Part shown: positions 44,314-64,000 of the stretch, in pieces
Position numbering within the stretch: position 1 is the stretch's first letter
Layout of the letters: every line of letters begins with the position of its first letter
Source of the DNA: Escherichia coli
GTDB lineage: Bacteria > Pseudomonadota > Gammaproteobacteria > Enterobacterales > Enterobacteriaceae
Reading direction: 5' to 3' (one strand)
NCBI RefSeq assembly: GCF_003334815.1
Contig: NZ_QOWO01000013.1
Length of the DNA: 64,000 nucleotides
Made by a program: the position numbers and the translations under genes
Notes under the pieces: generated by a model
What the model saw: the letters and a program-made list of their open reading frames with translations, nothing else
The model's database searches: none
Told to the model about the DNA's origin: nothing

Positions 44314-44557
44314 TGCGACAACCTCATACTCAAGAGTCAAAATTTGCGTAATTTTACTACAGCTGAATCGATAAAATAGCCTCTGAAGATCAAAATATAC
44401 GACCGCTCGCGGCAAGCCGATGCCAGATTTACGCTTTTTTTTCGTCGCGCCCCGCAAAATTGCATTCCAGTTAACGCGCTGGCTGTATTTGCCGCACCGC
44501 GCAGGTATACTCCTTTCCTGGTTTTTTTAATCACTACGTCGGGAGTTGTTACCCCCC

Positions 44558-53413: not shown

Positions 53414-54001
53414 TTACTTTTGAAAGGCTTTTTTTAAGCTGATTTTGGAAATCAGCTCAGTCAGTGAAAGGACCATTGTTGATCGCACAGCCTGTTGATA
53501 GCGCTGAATTTGCATTGCATACAAACTGGAGTCTGCTGGTTCAAACTGTGGCGGCGGTGGTAACGCCGCCACGCAGTGCAGTTCACCAAAGGGTCCAAGG
53601 ATTTCGTCGTCGGTAAAGGCGTACTCGTTGCCGTCGTGATTTAGCTCTTCACGCAATGCCATCAGCAGTTCCGCATCTTCGTATTCCTGGCGGTTAATGA
53701 CGCCCAACCCGTAAATGAGTTTTAAACGCACAGAAAGATCGCCCAGCGGACCATCGCCGTCGAGTAACGGTTCTACAGCATACTTCACCGCGTAATCGTC
53801 TTTGCGGAATACCTGAAGCACCAGAAGATTTACCGCCTCGGTCAGGAGCTCGACGGCGGTGATCAGAAAGCTTCGCACGGTTTTGCCAGCATTCAGACGC
53901 TCAAGCACACGGTTTTCAAAGGCCTGGGTTTGTTCCATTGTTGCCTGCATATCTGACAATCTGTTATTCGGGCGCAGGGTGTCCTGCGCCTGGTCCACCA
54001 T
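53414..54001 (-). CDS. mtlR: mannitol operon repressor MtlR
   Basis: ORF track 195 aa; start overlaps mtlD stop (TAATG). Confidence 0.9.
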   Translation of the reverse strand: MVDQAQDTLRPNNRLSDMQATMEQTQAFENRVLERLNAGKTVRSFLITAVELLTEAVNLLVLQVFRKDDYAVKYAVEPLLDGDGPLGDLSVRLKLIYGLGVINRQEYEDAELLMALREELNHDGNEYAFTDDEILGPFGELHCVAALPPPPQFEPADSSLYAMQIQRYQQAVRSTMVLSLTELISKISLKKAFQK

Positions 54002-55149
54002 TATTGCATTGCTTTATAAGCGGTTACCGCCTCGGATACAACCTCGCTGTTGGCATCAAGACCGGAAATCTGTGCCAGCGCCGCCTGCGGACCTTTGTCA
54101 GCGATCAGTGCTGCCAGTTCCTGAGCCTGCGGATCATCTTCACTGCGGAAGTGCATTGCAGCGGCAATACCTTCAATCAGGTTTTTATGTGGCAGACCAT
54201 ATTCCAGCGTACCGAGCAGTGGCTTGATCAGACGGTCGCCAGCACTCAGTTTACGCAGTGGCTGACGGCCTACGCGCTCTACATCATCTTTCAGATACGG
54301 GTTCTCAAAACGGCCGAGAATTTTCTGGATGTACGCCGCATGCTTGTCAGCGTCAAAGCCGTAGCGCTTGATCAATACTGCACCACTTTCTTCCATCGCA
54401 CCTTTTACCACCGCGCGGATTTTCTCGTCGAGAATCGCGTCACGAATGGTCTGATGACCGGCCAGTTTTCCGAGGTACGCGGTTATAGCATGACCCGTGT
54501 TCAGGGTGAAGAGTTTACGTTCGACAAATGCCATCAGGTTGTCGGTTAACTCCATGCCTGGGATGTTCGGCAGTGCGCCTTTGAACTGCGTTTTATCGAC
54601 AATCCATTCGCTGAAGGTTTCTACCGTCACTTCCAGCGGATCGTTAGTTGCCGAAGCCGAAGGCGGTACGATGCGGTCAACGGCGGAATCGACAAAGCCA
54701 ACGTGTTCTTCTACCCACGCTTTGGCGTCTTCCGGCAGGGCGTTCATCACATGGCCTTTCAGCTGCGTGGTACCGCGTACCATGTTTTCACAGGCGATGA
54801 TGTTCAGCGGGGATTCATTACCTTGTTCTTTACGTTTCACCAGCCCTTTGGCGATTGCCGGAGCAATACGTTCCAGCACAACCGGGCCAACGGCGGTAGT
54901 GACTAAATCAACCTGAGCAATCAGATCAACGACATCATCACCAATGCTGCTGACAGCATTGACGCCGGAAACGGTATCTACCTGCTCGGTTTCACCAACC
55001 ACATGTACCTGATAGCTATGACGGGCATTCAGGGCATCAAGTACCACCTGATTGACATCGGCAAACGTCAGTTGGATACCCGCGTCTGCCAGCAGTTTAC
55101 CGATAAAGCCACGACCGATATTACCTGCGCCAAAATGTAATGCTTTCAT
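54001..55149 (-). CDS. mtlD: mannitol-1-phosphate 5-dehydrogenase
   Basis: ORF track 54001..55467; conserved Rossmann start [17 protein letters not shown] at ATG 55149 (382 aa); the upstream extension in the track runs through REP repeats. Confidence 0.94.
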
Positions 55150-55180
55150 AGTATTAACCTTCATCAATGTTTTTACCCGA

Positions 55181-55375
55181 GAGGGCTGGGGTGAGGCTTT
55201 TCCCTCACCCAAACCCTCTCCGTGAGGAGAGGGGCAGCGCCGGATGCGGCGTAAGCGCCTTATCCGGCCTACAAGAACGTGCAAATTCAACAAATTGTGA
55301 TGCATCCTGTAGGCCTGATAAGCGTAGCGCATCAGGCAATTAACCCCACCTTCTCCATGTGGAGAGGGTGGGATT
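55181..55375. repeat. BIME-like cluster: CCCTC/GAGGG hairpins flanking two inverted REP elements
   Basis: hairpin about 55201-55234, REP 55241-55273, inverted REP 55305-55337, hairpin about 55346-55372; between mtlA stop and mtlD start. Confidence 0.7.
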
Positions 55376-55378
55376 GGA

Positions 55379-57292
55379 TTACTTACGACCTGCCAGCAGT
55401 TCCAGCACTTCATCCACGCTGGTGGTGTGTGCCAGACGCTCGATGACGGACTCATCATCCAGTGCATTGGTCAGGCTGGTGATAACCTGAATGTGCTCGT
55501 TGTTACGGGCAGCAATACCAATCACCAGACGGGCAATGTCATCTTCTTCTTCACCGAAGCGCACGCCTTCCGGGTACTGGCAGAACACGACGCCCGTTTT
55601 CAGTACGCGATCTTTCGCTTCAACCGTACCGTGTGGCACCGCGATAGACTCACCCAGATAAGTCGGGGTCAGTTTTTCACGATCCAGCATCGCCTGAACG
55701 TATTCCGGCTCAACGTAACCGCCTTTCACCAGCTGCTCGCCAGCAAAACGAATCGCTTCTTCTTTGGTTGCCGCTTTGCGACCGAGGAAGATGTTCTCCG
55801 CGCCTAGCTTGAACAGGTTAGCACTGGAATCGTCAAAGCTGTCTTTCAGGCTGTCTTTTACTTTCTCTTCGTTTGCCGTGTGGCGTTGGGCAGCAACCAG
55901 ACGTTCGGTCAGGCTGGTGTACAGGCCGCTGTCGAGGAAGTTGGTCAGCGAAATATGCTGTGCCTGCGGAACCTGGCGCATAGCGCGTTCGGTCAGGTCA
56001 CGGTGAGTGATGACGAGGTCCACATCTGGCGGCAGGTTGTTGATCGCGCTGTTAGTAACAGAAATCTGCGACAGACCTGCATCCTGAATTTTCTTACGCA
56101 GAACGCCTGCGCCCATCGCACTGGAACCCATACCGGCGTCACAGGCAACGATGATTTTACGTACGTGGCTCAGGTCGTTAGTCACATCGCCAGCAGACAG
56201 CGGAGATGCGCCTTTAGACTCAGCTTTCATGTCCTGCATACGACGAGTTGCTGCTTCAATATCATCTTCTTCTTTCACTTTGCTGGTTTTCAGCAAAATA
56301 GCAGAGACAACGAAGGAGACAGCCATCGCCGCACACACACCCGCGATGTTAGCGAAGTAAGCACCTTTTGGTGTCATCGCCAGTACAGCAAGGATAGAAC
56401 CCGGAGATGCCGGAGAAACCAGACCACCGCCCAGGATAGTCAGCGTGAACACGCCAGTCATACCGCCGAGGATGACTGCGAGGATCAGACGCGGATTCAT
56501 CAGCACATACGGGAAGTAGATTTCGTGGATACCCCCCAGGAAGTGGATGATTGCCGCACCGCCCGCAGACTGTTTAGCGCTACCACGACCAAAGAACATG
56601 TACGCCAGCAGCACGCCCATACCTGGACCTGGGTTAGCTTCAATCAGGAAGAAGATTGATTTACCCAGTTCATGGGACTGCTGAATACCCAGCGGCGAGA
56701 AGATACCGTGGTTAATGGCGTTGTTGAGGAACAGGATTTTCGCCGGTTCAACAAAGATAGACGCCAGCGGCAGCATGTCATGGACAACCATGAAGTTAAC
56801 GCCCGCAGCCAGCATTTTGGACAGGGCTTCAACAATCGGGCCAATGCCGAGGAATGCCAGAATAGCGAGGATCATCCCGATGATGCCTGCGGAGAAGTTA
56901 TTCACCAGCATCTCAAAACCGGATTTGATCTTACCGTCTACCCAGCGGTCGAAGTGCTTAATGCACCAGCCGCCCAGCGGACCTGCAATCATAGAACCGA
57001 GGAACATCGGCATGTCTGCGCCGACGATAACGCCCATGGTGGTGATGGCACCGACTACGCCGCCACGTTCGCCGCCTACCAGCTTACCACCGGTATAACC
57101 GATCAGCAGCGGCAGGAGATAAGTGATCATCGGCCCGACCAGCTTCGCCAGCGTCTCGTTCGGTAACCACCCTGTTGGAATAAATAACGCGGTGATGATA
57201 CCCCACGCGATAAACGCGCCGATATTTGGCATCACCATGTTGCTGAGGAAACGACCAAAGCTTTGCACTTTGATCTTAATATCGGATGACAT
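55379..57292 (-). CDS. mtlA: PTS mannitol-specific EIICBA
   Basis: ORF track 637 aa [27 protein letters not shown]... Confidence 0.95.
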
Positions 57293-57435
57293 AAAAACAC
57301 CCCTTCTTATGTTTGCTGTCGCGCAGGCTGGAAGCCCGAGGTTTTTTGTTAATGTGGCGGCAGAGGTAGCCGGACCTTGTAGATACTGCGAAATCTGGCA
57401 CTGAATCGGTTAACTGTCCAGTCGACGGCCTTTTG

Positions 57436-57612
57436 TGTGATATCAATCACATAAATATAGGGGGTAGAGAGGTAATTGACGTGACGTTCATCACAAAACG
57501 CTTGTGTAAAAAAGCAACAAGGCGGCGATTTTCGCTAAAAATGGCATTTAAATGTGAGTAGTGTCACATTTTTGTTTTGATGGTTTGTTGAATCTTTGTG
57601 ATCTGAATCACA
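57436..57612. promoter_or_regulatory. mtl operon control region with four CRP-type sites
   Basis: TGTGA-N6-TCACA at 57436-57451, 57553-57568 and 57597-57612 (perfect half-sites) and cGTGA-N6-TCACA at 57480-57495; 144-320 bp upstream of mtlA start. Confidence 0.65.
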
Positions 57613-57828
57613 AGATATTTTCTTACGGCGTTCACCTGATGTGATCTACAGCATGTTATGCCTTCGTCATACAATCGTTATGTAACTAAGCAACTCATCA
57701 CCTCTAAAAATTATTCTTTGGTGTTATGGCGAGAATCGCGAACCCGGATTATTGTCAAAATATCAGCCTGACTCCCTTCTGGCTGCCAGCCCAAAAACAA
57801 CACTGATAAACGTGAATCCGAGGCAGAT

Positions 57829-58191
57829 ATGTTTCTAAACTATTTCGCGTTGGGAGTGCTGATCTTCGTCTTTCTGGTGATTTTTTATGGAATCATCGCG
57901 ATACATGACATCCCTTATCTGATTGCCAAAAAGCGCAACCATCCCCATGCCGACGCTATTCATACGGCGGGCTGGGTGAGCCTGTTTACTCTGCATGTTA
58001 TCTGGCCGTTTCTGTGGATCTGGGCGACGCTCTATCAACCGGAGCGTGGCTGGGGTATGCAGTCACATGTTGCGTCGCAGGAGAAAGCGACTGACCCGGA
58101 AATCGCCGCACTTTCTGACCGAATTTCCCGGCTGGAGCATCAACTCGCCGCCGAGAAAAAGACTGACTATTCCACGTTCCCGGAGATCTAA
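57829..58191 (+). CDS. yibI: small inner-membrane protein YibI
   Basis: ORF track 120 aa; two hydrophobic segments then a charged C-terminal tail. Confidence 0.82.
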
Positions 58192-58193
58192 TT

Positions 58194-59330
58194 ATGGATC
58201 TATTGATTGTTTTAACTTACGTGGCGCTGGCGTGGGCGGTCTTTAAAATCTTCCGCATTCCGGTAAATCAGTGGACGCTGGCGACGGCGGCGCTGGGAGG
58301 CGTGTTTCTGGTGAGTGGTTTGATTTTGTTGATGAACTACAACCACCCTTACACTTTTACCGCGCAAAAGGCAGTGATAGCGATCCCTATCACGCCACAG
58401 GTGACGGGAATTGTTACTGAAGTCACTGACAAGAATAATCAGCTTATTCAAAAGGGCGAGGTGCTTTTTAAGCTCGACCCGGTTCGTTACCAGGCGCGAG
58501 TTGACAGACTTCAGGCTGACCTGATGACGGCGACGCATAATATAAAGACGCTGCGTGCGCAGCTCACTGAAGCGCAGGCCAACACCACCCAGGTTTCAGC
58601 GGAGCGCGACCGTCTGTTTAAAAATTATCAACGTTACTTGAAAGGCAGCCAGGCGGCGGTGAATCCGTTCTCGGAACGTGACATCGACGATGCGCGGCAA
58701 AATTTCCTCGCGCAGGATGCGCTGGTGAAAGGCTCGGTGGCGGAGCAGGCGCAGATCCAGAGCCAGCTCGACAGTATGGTTAACGGCGAGCAATCGCAGA
58801 TTGTGAGCTTAAGAGCGCAACTTACTGAAGCAAAATATAACCTTGAGCAGACTGTCATTCGCGCGCCGAGCAATGGCTACGTTACTCAGGTACTGATCCG
58901 CCCAGGTACATACGCAGCTGCCTTGCCGCTGCGTCCGGTGATGGTCTTCATCCCCGAGCAAAAACGGCAAATTGTCGCCCAATTTCGGCAAAACTCGCTG
59001 TTACGTCTGAAACCCGGCGATGATGCGGAAGTGGTGTTTAACGCGCTACCTGGGCAGGTGTTTCACGGCAAACTGACTAGTATTTTACCTGTCGTGCCAG
59101 GCGGTTCTTATCAGGCGCAGGGGGTATTGCAATCATTAACGGTCGTGCCCGGCACGGACGGTGTGCTGGGAACCATTGAACTGGACCCTAACGATGATAT
59201 CGATGCCTTACCCGACGGCATCTACGCCCAGGTGGCGGTTTACTCCGACCATTTCAGCCATGTTTCGGTGATGCGGAAAGTGCTGCTAAGAATGACCAGC
59301 TGGATGCATTATCTTTATTTGGATCATTGA
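58194..59330 (+). CDS. yibH: HlyD-family membrane fusion protein YibH
   Basis: ORF track 378 aa; N-terminal TM, long coiled coil, beta-rich C-terminus; 2 nt after yibI. Confidence 0.85.
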
Positions 59331-59892
59331 GGGGGAGGGGGGAGATTATGGAACTTTGCTCCTTGTAAGGACTAATTATTTTTGCATATTACTTCATTAG
59401 CTGCGATGATTTTTCTTTAATATTCATTATGTTAATAAGTTCTGGATGAGTGTGCTCTCATTGGATTTTTTATCCGTCTTGTTCTGCCGCAGGATGAGAC
59501 TATACATCGTCGAGATCGCAATGATGATATGAGTTGTTCCTCCTGCGACGGCTCTAATCAAAAAAGAGCAGGAGTGCTTTTCCATCTATTGCGATGATGG
59601 CTTTATTATCTGAAGGATGACAGTCACATTTAAAAAATATTTAATCTATAGATCACAATGTAGGGTCATGGAATATATGTATACAACTATTTTCTTCTTC
59701 ACTTTTAATTATCGTATTCATTATAAAACTAAGTTAAAAAAACTCCTGGAGAGTGAGTTATTAATATATTTTTAAATAAAATTAAGTTATCATTCATCGA
59801 TGCACTTTATAGAATCATCAATGGCCATAATAGTACTATTAACTCTCAATTTTATATTTTTATCATCACTACAAATATTAACTGAATTTATA

Positions 59893-60228
59893 TCAATGAT
59901 TTTTTTTATTCTTATCTTTTATTTTATTTACTGTTTCAATGCAATCAGCGGCAAGTTGGAGTGGATTTAGATTTTTCAGATATGGTCTTATGATCTTTCC
60001 CTTACTTAATAAATAGCATGTATAGGATTCGGAAAGTCCAGCATCTATTTTGTACCTCATTATATTAGATAAGGATGTGAGAAATTCCTTGTTATCATTC
60101 GCAGCCATATATGCCAGTCCGAGTTCAGCCTCTGCGGCCTTACAGGCAAAATAGCTTAGTGAACACGCTTTTCGTCCCTCTTTAGTACTGGCTGATATTA
60201 GTGCCCATAATATTGCTTTGTCTGCCAA
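59893..60228 (-). CDS. hypothetical 111-aa ORF at the distal end of the rhs accessory array (possible orphan immunity gene)
   Basis: ORF track only; track start is a TTG and the first ATG is internal; AT-rich; no recognisable motif. Confidence 0.35.
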   Translation of the reverse strand: MADKAILWALISASTKEGRKACSLSYFACKAAEAELGLAYMAANDNKEFLTSLSNIMRYKIDAGLSESYTCYLLSKGKIIRPYLKNLNPLQLAADCIETVNKIKDKNKKNH

Positions 60229-60316
60229 ATCTAACTCTCTCTGAAATTGTCTTGCAGTAACTGCACTCGCAGAAATAGAGAAAAAAATACAATTGTTAAT
60301 AACCTTGCCATATTTT

Positions 60317-60610
60317 TTAGTCCGTAACTGTTAATGTGCTATCTGGCTCTGAAAATATTAACTCATTTAATTTTTGCATGTCATTAGATAAACCAGTTAT
60401 ACAACCCTCGGAACAGAATCGAGGTCCTAAAGACGGACCAAAAGCGTTTAAACAACTATGTATTGAAAATCCATTGCGATTATAAGTTCCTGTATTAACT
60501 GACGGTACTAATCGTATGCCGTCAGGTTTTCTATTGCTTGCTCCCGGGTCATTAACATTCCAACTCCATAGGCCTTGAGGTATTGGCCATCTATTTATAA
60601 ATGTGTACAA
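60317..60610 (-). pseudogene. probable remnant of an orphan Rhs C-terminal toxin tip
   Basis: ORF track 97 aa starting at TTG; lies directly downstream of the degenerate rhs core-end fragment but in a different frame. Confidence 0.35.
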
Positions 60611-60744
60611 CGGGGATTATTTTTACATTGCATATTATTACCAGAAGCGACTGGAATACTAAGCACATCATAAAAATTATCATCACATGGTATATCTGAA
60701 ACACACGAAAGCATACCTAAAGTTATGCTGTATAAACAGGTGGC

Positions 60745-60925
60745 TAATCCCAAGGGGATCGATTCCAGAAATCGGGTTCAACGGATACTGATAAAAATTC
60801 CACCTACCTTCCAGCCCAATCGGAGCCTGAGTGTTATACCGCCCCTGCTGCGGTTAATGTTACCGATAATAGTTATAGTACAGCCCTGATTCATCATCAT
60901 ACTACTGCTGCGGCAGTCTGATGAA
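60745..60925 (-). pseudogene. degenerate Rhs core C-terminal fragment with in-frame stops
   Basis: Reverse translation gives [54 protein letters not shown], a decayed copy of the rhs core end ([20 protein letters not shown]...[24 protein letters not shown]). Confidence 0.6.
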
Positions 60926-60934
60926 CTATTGCTT

Positions 60935-61396
60935 TTACGGATTCTCCTTATTCTTCCTTCTATCCATTCGCTTTAGCTTTTTGAGCTCTTGAAGTTTGCT
61001 CTTTGCATCAATATTACCGTTATTTACAGCGAATTCCATCCAATAAATAGCTCTATTCAAATTATAATATTCTGATAATGTTGGATTTGTATCTGATAAA
61101 AAGACCCCATAATTAAACTGCGCTGTAACATTCCCCTGAGATGCTGATCTTTCCAAGAATCGCAATTGTTTGTAAATGTTATTTTTAGTAAAGCAGTAAT
61201 ATTGATATAGTCGAAATGATGCCTCTGAATCACCATGTTGTGATTTATACTTCAGTTTCATCAACTTTTCTTCACTTAAATCATAGGTCATTGCTGTAGA
61301 CCCCATCATACTTTCGTTTTGTTTTATTTTCACATCAGCACCATGCAATTGACAAATAAAAGAGAAATAAAAAAATAGTAACAAGCATGCTTTCAT
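60935..61396 (-). CDS. yibG: Sel1-repeat protein YibG with N-terminal signal-peptide-like segment (putative immunity protein for the yibJ toxin tip)
   Basis: ORF track 153 aa; 12 nt downstream of yibJ stop. Confidence 0.82.
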   Translation of the reverse strand: MKACLLLFFYFSFICQLHGADVKIKQNESMMGSTAMTYDLSEEKLMKLKYKSQHGDSEASFRLYQYYCFTKNNIYKQLRFLERSASQGNVTAQFNYGVFLSDTNPTLSEYYNLNRAIYWMEFAVNNGNIDAKSKLQELKKLKRMDRRKNKENP

Positions 61397-61407
61397 ACAT
61401 CTACAAC

Positions 61408-62352
61408 CTATCTTATATCACTGGGTTTTTCTGGCGTACCTTGCATATTAGAAATGGGGTGCCCAGATGGCCCATATGTTATCCAATTACCAAGGTCTTT
61501 TGTTGTTATAGCCATTAGATCCTTATTTGAATTAAGGTTCGTTGGTGCTGTTAGCACTGTATCCATTTTTAACTTACCATTAGTTCCTCGCCCCCACCAC
61601 GTCCATAGCGTGTCAGGTCCTATTACATTTGTATGTAACTCTTTAGCTAATTGGCTAGCAAATGAATTTTGTCCTTTACCTGTATTACAAGAAAATAACC
61701 AAACTGTCATCCCATCTTTATAATTCCCATCAAATTTAATTAGATATGCTAGATCTTTAGCTGTCATGATACTGCGCGTTGCGGATTCAATAGATGTGGG
61801 GGTACCATGCCCCCCGATTGTGAAAACGCCTGGGATATTAATCTCATCAGCTACAGAATGGATAAGATCACTTTCGGGGTATAAATTTATATCAACCAAA
61901 CCTTGCGGATCTACATTTATGACCGGATTCAACGGATACTGATAAAAATTCCATCCCCCCTTCAGTCCAATCGGATCCTGAGTGATATACCGCCCCAGCA
62001 GCGGGTCATAATAGCGGTGGCGGTTGTAATACAGGCCGGACTCCTCATCATACTGCTGACCCGGCAGGCGAATGAGCTGCTGCAGATGATGCGGGTTCTC
62101 ATCACTCAGCAGGTTGCCCCATTCATCATATTCTGCGCACCACGCTGTTGCCCCTTCCGTGCTGATGAGCGCCAGCGGCAGGCCGCGATGGTCGCAGTGG
62201 TACAGGTGGATTTTTCGCGCCGGCGTGTACACCGGGTCCATCTGGTTTTGCATCTGCTCCACCGTCAGGCCGCACGATGCCAGCCAGCGGCGGCTTTCCT
62301 CACTCACCCGGTCAGCCAGGATTTCACTTTCCAGCCGGTCGAGCATCTGCAC
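61408..62352 (-). CDS. yibJ: orphan Rhs C-terminal module YibJ: rhs core 3' fragment fused to an alternative C-terminal tip
   Basis: ORF track 314 aa (GTG 62352 or ATG 62346); first ~150 aa nearly identical to the rhsA core end, diverging after DPQGL. Confidence 0.8.
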
Positions 62353-62388
62353 CGTGCCGGCGGGAATCCCCCACTGTGCATAGGCAAC
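61921..62388 (-). repeat. direct repeat of the rhsA core 3' end (second copy at 63678-64000 and beyond)
   Basis: long near-identical stretches, e.g. TTTTTCGCGCCGGCGTGTACACCGGGTCCATCTGGTT at 62211-62247 and 63964-64000. Confidence 0.85.
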
Positions 62389-62393
62389 TCACG

Positions 62394-63236
62394 CTATGAA
62401 CGCTTCAGCTTATCAATAGCGGAAGTTATAATTTCATTGTCATCAAACTTGTACAACATAGTATCTAAAACAGGAAGTAGCGTTTTATCACCTAATTCAC
62501 CCGCAGCTTCAATGATATCATCATAAACAGTATTTTTTTTTAACTCATCGCATAAAACAGATAAAACCCTTTTATCTTTTCTGTAGGAAAGTCCGATTAT
62601 TGCTTCAATACGGACTTCCTCATTTTTATCCTGAAGCATCTCCACAAAACAATCCCTAATATCACTATTATCATATTTATTGATATTTATTGCAAATGCG
62701 GCCCAGTTTCTGACATCTCCATTTGGATCTTTTAACAGATTAATCAATAGTGGAATTGTTGCTTTATCATTGATAACAGAAATAGCAAATGCTGTAGCAC
62801 GTCTGACATTAGTCGATTTATCAAAAGCAGTAATTTGAGATTGTTCTACTATTTTAGGTGAATAAATTGGGTTTTTCTTGCATCGCTGAGCCGTTGACTC
62901 GATTGCCGTAGCTCGAACGCAAGCGCTCTTATCATTCAATGCCATATTGTTCAAAATATTAAAAACATTATCTTCGCATTTTTTGCAAATTTTTATTTGC
63001 CCGAGTATAAATGCTCCGATATCTCTACGGATATAATTTTTATCAGAGCAGAACTCAATTGCCAATCTAACAGCGTCTTGCCCACCTCTTAACTGTAATA
63101 CTCTGGCAGATGAAATCCTTTTCAAGGAATTGTGATCATCAAGTAAGCGAAATAATTCATCATCATTTAGTTTCTTACATTGATTATATAAACCATACTC
63201 TTTACTTGCCTTTCTTTTCTGGTATGTATTTGACAT
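62394..63236 (-). CDS. yibA: HEAT-repeat protein YibA (RhsA-associated immunity protein)
   Basis: ORF track 62394..63251 (GTG); ATG 63236 preceded by GGAGG gives 280 aa; 20 nt downstream of rhsA stop. Confidence 0.82.
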   Translation of the reverse strand: MSNTYQKRKASKEYGLYNQCKKLNDDELFRLLDDHNSLKRISSARVLQLRGGQDAVRLAIEFCSDKNYIRRDIGAFILGQIKICKKCEDNVFNILNNMALNDKSACVRATAIESTAQRCKKNPIYSPKIVEQSQITAFDKSTNVRRATAFAISVINDKATIPLLINLLKDPNGDVRNWAAFAININKYDNSDIRDCFVEMLQDKNEEVRIEAIIGLSYRKDKRVLSVLCDELKKNTVYDDIIEAAGELGDKTLLPVLDTMLYKFDDNEIITSAIDKLKRS

Positions 63237-63256
63237 TGCAGGAACCTCCACAAGGG

Positions 63257-64000
63257 CTATCTTTTTTTATCGTTTGACTGTCTGGAGTGACGACAATTCC
63301 AGGCTTTCTGTGTGCTTTTTGCATCTTTAGCACTAATATCACCACAATCAATTAGTTCCTGAAGTACGTCACATCTGTCGGGTTTTTTCCCATCACTCCA
63401 GAATCTGTCATTTATTATGTCATTGACACGATCAGTTATCCCTGTGTCTGCAACATTTCCACGAGAAGCTATCATTGTTATATCTAATGCTAGTCCCGGA
63501 TTATTCAATATTAGAGAGTCAAATATTCTTTGTGATGCTGTATCGTTCCACCATTTTGTCAATGCTTTTGCAGCATTATCATCTGCTTGCTGCTGTGCAG
63601 GGCTTTTGGGCCATGGAATTGGCAAGGGGAATGGTCTAGGAAAAACTTCTAACCCCAGAGGATCTGTATTCGTAACTGGATTCAACGGATACTGATAAAA
63701 ATTCCATCCCCCCTTCAGCCCAATCGGATCCTGAGTGATATACCGCCCCTGCAGCGGGTCATAATAGCGGTGGCGGTTGTAATACAGGCCGGACTCCTCA
63801 TCATACTGCTGCCCCGGCAGGCGGATAAGCTGCTGCAGCTGATGCGGGTTCTCTTCATTCAGCAGGTTGCCCCATTCATCGTATTCTGCGCACCATTCTG
63901 TTGTCCCTTCCTTGCTGATAAGGGCCAGCGGCAGGCCGCGATGGTCGCAGTGGTACAGGTGGATTTTTCGCGCCGGCGTGTACACCGGGTCCATCTGGTT
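63257..64000 (-). CDS. rhsA: RhsA, 3' end only (core C-terminus, DPLGL junction and C-terminal tip); gene continues beyond window end
   Basis: Open reverse-strand frame from the window end to TAG at 63257-63259; ...[44 protein letters not shown]... Confidence 0.88.

Follow-up and report, generated by a model that had tools for sequence, protein, structure and literature searches.

The 536-bp spacer between mtlA and yibI is almost certainly the operator-promoter of the Escherichia coli mannitol operon mtlADR, in which an array of CRP sites is combined with a docking platform for the repressor MtlR, both CRP binding and MtlR docking being documented in the literature. The spacer occupies exactly positions 57293 to 57828 of the window, i.e., the whole 64-kb stretch of DNA that was analyzed, with mtlA on the minus strand and yibI on the plus strand. 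The five CRP sites of mtlADR are said to have been catalogued by Ramseier and Saier in 1995. Neither the array nor its main interpretation is new: both are textbook and database knowledge, and the mechanism was published in 2026. All 536 bases of the spacer are identical to those of E. coli K-12 MG1655, and the published site coordinates thus apply directly to the window, which shows no difference from the K-12 mtlADR operator-promoter in its five sites, their positions and spacings, or the flanking genes. The linked operon for EII-Mtl, mannitol-1-phosphate dehydrogenase, and MtlR is present, with mtlA, mtlD, and mtlR all on the minus strand (mtlD and mtlR were placed in the window by tblastn). 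Moreover, a 701-bp query (57200 to 57900) found a match annotated mtlA / yibI in 5,405 of 5,426 complete E. coli genomes. Even in the allele of the uropathogenic strain UTI89, which differs at 12 of the 536 spacer positions, none of the 50 core positions of CRP1 to CRP5 is affected. No sequence contradicting the operator-promoter explanation was found.

An earlier reading made from the sequence alone had drawn attention to this spacer because of three perfect CRP palindromes and one with a single mismatch, placed within 180 bp upstream of mtlA. Searching the whole 64-kb window with the CRP pattern TGTGANNNNNNTCACA (TGTGA-N6-TCACA) at ≤1 mismatch returned exactly four matches, all inside the mtlA-yibI spacer, which bears out the counts. 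The position needs correction: the four strong sites do span 177 bp, but they lie 144 to 320 bp upstream of the mtlA ATG, approximately −51 to −227 from the transcription start. The list of four sites, correct as far as it went, had also overlooked a weak fifth site, CRP1 (Table 1). The density described as unusually high is indeed so, with three perfect palindromes against 0.06 expected per 64 kb, a number reached in none of 100 shuffles. At ≤1 mismatch, four matches were observed against 1.92 expected per 64 kb, and by our own arithmetic the chance of four matches falling within one 177-bp span is on the order of 1e-8. Elsewhere in the window, matches at ≤2 mismatches are at or below chance (18 against 25 expected). 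The site centers reproduce the published spacings of 44, 73, 44, and 43 bp exactly, and the three 43/44-bp intervals needed for MtlR docking exist in the spacer sequence.

Table 1. Features of the mtlA-yibI spacer and of the flanking genes, with positions counted from the first base of the window
Feature	Position	Strand	Sequence	Remarks
CRP5	57436-57451		TGTGATATCAATCACA	Perfect core; center 57443.5, −58.5 from mtlA start
CRP4	57480-57495		CGTGACGTTCATCACA	CGTGA..TCACA, 1 mismatch; center 57487.5, −102.5; 44 bp from CRP5
CRP3	57553-57568		TGTGAGTAGTGTCACA	Perfect; center 57560.5, −175.5; 73 bp from CRP4
CRP2	57597-57612		TGTGATCTGAATCACA	Perfect; center 57604.5, −219.5; 44 bp from CRP3
CRP1	57640-57655		TGTGATCTACAGCATG	Weak, 7/10 core bases (3 mismatches); center 57647.5, −262.5; 43 bp from CRP2
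mtlA core promoter	57385-57420	−		−35 TGGACA 57415-57420; 17-bp spacer; TG-extended −10 CAGATT 57392-57397; start 57385
Cra (FruR) operator-like box	57400-57413	+	ACTGAATCGGTTAA	Inside the −35/−10 spacer of the mtlA promoter
mtlA 5' untranslated leader	57293-57384	−		~92 nt
CRP1-to-yibI ATG stretch	57656-57828	+		yibI promoter and leader must lie mostly or entirely here
mtlA	55379-57292	−		PTS mannitol transporter EIICBA, 637 aa; gene under array control
mtlD	54001-55149	−		Mannitol-1-phosphate 5-dehydrogenase; operon gene 2
mtlR	53414-54001	−		Repressor without DNA-binding domain, docks on paired CRP dimers (literature); operon gene 3
yibI	57829-58191	+		DUF3302 membrane protein; divergent from mtlA
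yibH	58194-59330	+		HlyD-family protein; yibI-yibH operon 57829-59330

The sequence-only reading took these palindromes for CRP sites that control mtlA, and published SELEX, ChIP-seq, EMSA, and site-mutant data support this assumption. With 38 clones, the yibI/mtlA spacer ranked second in abundance in CRP genomic SELEX, and a RegulonDB-derived table in the same article lists the same five sequences as mtlADR CRP activator sites at −261.5, −219.5, −175.5, −102.5, and onward (Shimada et al. 2011). CRP ChIP-seq in ETEC gave a peak over CRP2/CRP1 and another over CRP5/CRP4. The five centers were placed at −262.5, −219.5, −175.5, −102.5, and −58.5, with spacings of 43, 44, 73, and 44 bp, and the sites were confirmed by EMSA and by chromosomal site mutants (Lee et al., NAR 2026, PMC13421365). 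Chromosomal replacement of CRP2, CRP4, or CRP5 abolished mtlD expression and growth on mannitol, replacement of CRP3 caused a slight reduction, and replacement of CRP1 had no effect, this site being dispensable for mtl and remaining unoccupied in vitro once CRP2 and CRP3 are filled (Lee et al., PMC13421365). Altogether, the cited work establishes that CRP binds the sites, that mtl expression is CRP dependent, and that changes to the 44-bp spacings affect repression by MtlR.

The same literature accounts for the geometry of the array. MtlR lacks a DNA-binding domain, and its repression takes place through docking onto paired CRP dimers; its supershift of CRP-DNA requires that both sites be occupied and lie 43 to 46 bp apart, 44 to 45 bp being optimal, a spacing that, according to the authors, is shared by no other CRP-regulated unit in E. 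coli (Lee et al., PMC13421365). In the resulting picture, cAMP-CRP on five sites (four strong and one weak) activates the weak sigma-70 promoter TGGACA-17-CAGATT, the mtlA promoter being a Class III CRP-dependent promoter. A dimer of MtlR docks onto two CRP dimers with sites 43 to 46 bp apart. [quoted passage not shown] Cra and Fis add repression at or near the core promoter. The high density of sites and their fixed 44-73-44(-43)-bp spacing thus follow from the inability of MtlR to bind DNA itself, the density being explained by sites that double as activator sites and as a platform for docking of the repressor. The role of the far-upstream CRP sites in activation is described only as "architectural" (Lee et al., PMC13421365).

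A comparison drawn by the same authors is with the CytR-CRP complexes (e.g., deoP2), in which, as for MtlR, the specificity of the repressor is achieved via CRP dimers at tandem sites; CytR, however, also binds the DNA between the CRP sites, whereas MtlR reads only the 43- to 46-bp geometry of two CRP dimers (Lee et al., PMC13421365).

The transcription start of mtlA at 57385 was derived from the published CRP site positions, and TGGACA-17-CAGATT is the top sigma-70 candidate on the mtlA strand in our sigma-70 scan. Across 41 aligned sequences, A, A, and T of the −10 element are conserved at 100% and G at 90%. CRP5, at −58.5, is displaced by 3 bp from −61.5, where a classical Class I site would be centered. 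A CRP-like 16-mer with three mismatches (AGTGCCAGATTTCGCA, 57387 to 57402, minus strand), centered at approximately −9.5 of the mtlA start, overlaps the −10 element, and its counterpart in several Enterobacter-like genomes has ≤2 mismatches and lies 49 bp from CRP5; this 16-mer is probably conserved for being the −10 and start region. Between −35 and −10, the box at 57400 to 57413 is a full match to the Cra consensus RSTGAAWCSNTHHW, which has three matches in the window against 0.66 expected. The two other full matches are located at 44362 to 44375 and at 58658 to 58671, the latter within yibH. Repression of mtlADR by Cra near the core promoter is described in the literature (including Lee et al., NAR 2026, PMC13421365), and we infer from the sequence match that the box at 57400 to 57413 would be the Cra box of mtlADR.

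Downstream of the start, the mtlA leader offered no sign of a structured RNA. The fold of 57290 to 57385 (leader and start codon) gave a z score of 0.12 against shuffles, indicating no special structure, and an Rfam search of the spacer and mtlA leader returned no match at E ≤ 1; on these two results, the presence of an RNA element there was rejected. A terminator-like match from a simple scan (57414 to 57428, plus strand) and a promoter-like match (57286, plus strand) were dismissed as well, both occurring at chance rate and in implausible places.

The cores and spacing of the array are deeply conserved across species. We fetched mtlA loci from 80 species and aligned 41 sequences that were chosen for carrying the four-site pattern. 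Of these 41 sequences, 37 have exactly the 44-73-44 spacing. This spacing is found in Escherichia, Citrobacter, Enterobacter, Leclercia, Cedecea, Pluralibacter, Klebsiella, Pantoea, Erwinia, Serratia, Yersinia, Rahnella, Hafnia, and Budvicia, and near-identical spacings are found in Providencia (44-72-44), Aeromonas (45-73-44), and Photobacterium (45-73-43). Some relatives deviate, namely, Photorhabdus (44-115), Edwardsiella (~44-63-44), and several Vibrio with fewer detectable sites. The 40 core columns of CRP2 to CRP5 have a mean identity of 94.8%, compared to 54.5% for the N6 spacers and 56.7% for the inter-site DNA, with the CRP5 core conserved at 92%. The array is almost free of gaps in this alignment; the CRP1 side and the mtlA leader are rich in indels, and CRP1 is found at the 43-bp offset with ≤3 mismatches in only 18 of the 41 sequences.

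These figures bear on whether the palindromes could be devoid of function, having arisen by chance or been left over from a repeat unit that was duplicated. Short palindromes can recur, and nothing else favors such a reading, to which we give practically no credence: three perfect sites are far beyond the expected number per 64 kb, the similarity between sites is confined to the CRP cores, the intervening spacers being unrelated, the cores are conserved at about 95% against about 55% for their flanks, and the published direct-binding and mutant data contradict it. A modular duplication of a 44-bp or a 117-bp unit was likewise rejected, as the copies resemble each other in the CRP cores only. 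A direct repeat was observed between 57487 to 57518 and 57663 to 57694 (72% identical over 32 nt, 176 bp apart), linking the right half and flank of CRP4 to the DNA just beyond CRP1; it is probably due to chance.

The comparison also tells to which operon the array belongs. Only Escherichia, Citrobacter, Leclercia, some Enterobacter-like genomes, and Pseudescherichia have the yibI-yibH pair upstream of mtlA. Elsewhere, as judged from translated sequences, the upstream position is occupied by a divergent glutathione transferase gene resembling yibF, by a co-directional lipoprotein gene resembling yiaF, by selA, or by other genes, and the array is unchanged with every type of neighbor. Since it is kept whatever gene lies upstream, the array belongs to mtl. 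One could instead imagine a divided labor, with CRP1 to CRP3 belonging to yibIH and only CRP4 and CRP5 serving mtlA, as the 73-bp gap parting the two site pairs and the two separate ETEC ChIP-seq peaks, labeled yibI and mtlA, might suggest. Such a partition is very improbable, given that mutation of CRP2 alone is sufficient to abolish mtlD expression and growth on mannitol (Lee et al., PMC13421365) and that the four-site array is kept, with its 73-bp gap, in genera without upstream yibIH, some of them with a co-directional upstream gene. Our survey extends a published check of the operator in four species to ~40 species, with a near-invariant 44-73-44 spacing that is independent of the upstream neighbor.

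A secondary idea, reasonable but small, is the coupling of yibI-yibH to CRP, which the sequence-only reading had raised as a possibility. The earlier claim that region 57293 to 57828 must also serve the divergent yibI stands, these coordinates being the exact mtlA-yibI spacer and the two genes being divergent. CRP at the distal sites (CRP2 and possibly CRP1) might also activate or modulate yibI-yibH, an arrangement that would supplement the mtlADR operator explanation and not replace it, and which we consider a tentative possibility falling short of an even chance. In that case, cAMP-CRP would count yibIH among its regulated genes, whose expression could depend on MtlR and mannitol as well. 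Several observations are consistent with a bidirectional array: (i) the yibI promoter must sit in the mtlA-yibI spacer because the genes are divergent, (ii) CRP2 precedes the yibI ATG by 224 bp and CRP1 by 181 bp, (iii) one of the ETEC CRP ChIP-seq peaks was assigned to yibI, and (iv) divergent promoters are often both CRP regulated (Shimada et al. 2011). Against them, CRP1, the site nearest to yibI, is weak and unoccupied in vitro, and the array is conserved in genomes without yibIH. Moreover, the placement of the CRP sites relative to yibI is not conserved among yibIH carriers, in which the mtlA-yibI spacer measures 433, 530 to 536, or 657 to 663 bp and the yibI-proximal DNA is alignable only within Escherichia and Citrobacter.

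The expression data are circumstantial. Upon glucose exhaustion in O157:H7 Sakai, yibH was upregulated (log2 3.78) together with mtlA (log2 2.84), but this induction is equally explained by RpoS, rpoS being also induced at that time. Promoter-trap clones of yibI were induced 5.6-fold in urine compared to LB, and their inserts map to 57500 to 57980 and 57685 to 57919 of the window; the latter insert, if complete, begins downstream of every CRP site. The yibI side lacks a strong sigma-70 promoter, as would be expected if transcription depended on an activator, and CRP2 would be centered at −61.5 relative to one weak candidate, but all yibI-side candidates score below the shuffle median. Our literature search, which covered supplementary data of Conway 2014, Latif 2018, Kim 2018, and an Open Biol 2022 paper, found neither a measurement of yibI in crp or cya mutants nor a mapped yibI start site; yibI is not mentioned in Lee et al. 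(NAR 2026, PMC13421365).

CRP coupling of yibIH is plausible; the comparative data neither require nor exclude it. That CRP at the distal mtl array (CRP2, with or without CRP1) also drives or gates the yibI-yibH promoter seems to us less likely than not. If it were true, docking of MtlR on the CRP1-CRP2 or the CRP2-CRP3 pair could bring yibIH under repression by MtlR and induction by mannitol, and a DUF3302/HlyD-family membrane pair linked to urine fitness would be tied to carbon-source sensing. The malEp-malKp region, with four CRP sites and MalT sites, resembles mtlA-yibI in that a nucleoprotein array with multiple CRP sites lies between divergent operons, and it offers a model of what to expect if CRP acted on both mtlA and yibI. 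There, both promoters depend on the array. The native malK array differs from the 43- to 44-bp mtl array by its 34-bp spacing, and it does not recruit MtlR (Lee et al., PMC13421365).

On the yibI side of the spacer, a sigma-70 position-weight scan of the yibI strand gave best candidates scoring 4.4 to 6.9 against a shuffle median of 8.1, none being above chance, and the predicted yibI promoter candidates are both weak and mutually discordant. The candidate with CRP2 at −61.5, TTCACC-17-TGTTAT, would start near 57666; its hexamers (57631 to 57659) overlap CRP1 and lie mostly upstream of the stretch that separates CRP1 from the yibI ATG. Another weak candidate, TCTACA-19-TACAAT, was predicted in an RNA polymerase SELEX study and would start near 57682, with its −35 element (57645 to 57650) coinciding with the N6 spacer of CRP1. 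The candidate −10 element of the latter, TACAAT (57670 to 57675), reads TAAAAT, closer to consensus, in UPEC UTI89, the strain with the reported urine-inducible yibI promoter activity.

Two further elements closer to yibI are conserved within a narrower range of species. The TGTTATGGCG block at 57722 to 57731 (TG[TG][TG]ATGGCG) is near-invariant in E. coli, E. albertii, and three Citrobacter species, and its positions 57722 to 57730 resemble an extended −10 element, TGnTATGGC, making it a weak candidate for the yibI promoter. The ATG within this block (57726) begins a 26-aa ORF upstream of yibI in E. coli, which was rejected as coding, both its frame and its stop being lost in E. albertii / Citrobacter; since the frame is not conserved, the block is conserved at the DNA or RNA level. 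The second element is an inverted repeat, CAGCC-N12-GGCTG (57766 to 57787), ~45 to 65 nt upstream of the yibI ATG, with invariant arms and a variable loop in the same five species; the DNA upstream of yibI in Enterobacter, Leclercia, and P. vulneris lacks it. This repeat could form a hairpin in the leader or serve a yibIH regulator as a dimeric operator.

A few observations were made around the spacer. In a 1,200-day stationary-phase evolution experiment, a 1-bp insertion in the mtlA/yibI spacer, reported without its position, was fixed in one lineage; because MtlR docking needs the 43- to 46-bp spacing, repression could change if a 1-bp indel fell between CRP sites. The mtlA-mtlD spacer (55150 to 55378) carries REP-like palindromes (GCCTGATAAGCGTAGCGCATCAGGC). 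O157:H7 PV15-279 differs from the window by an indel in this mtlA-mtlD spacer, yet its mtlA-yibI spacer is identical. The base-for-base match to PV15-279 does not continue 3' of yibH (~59400 to 64000), where the counterpart in PV15-279 contains remnants of an Rhs core and of an Imm57 immunity gene, together with yibG; this part of the window is a variable Rhs-associated region.
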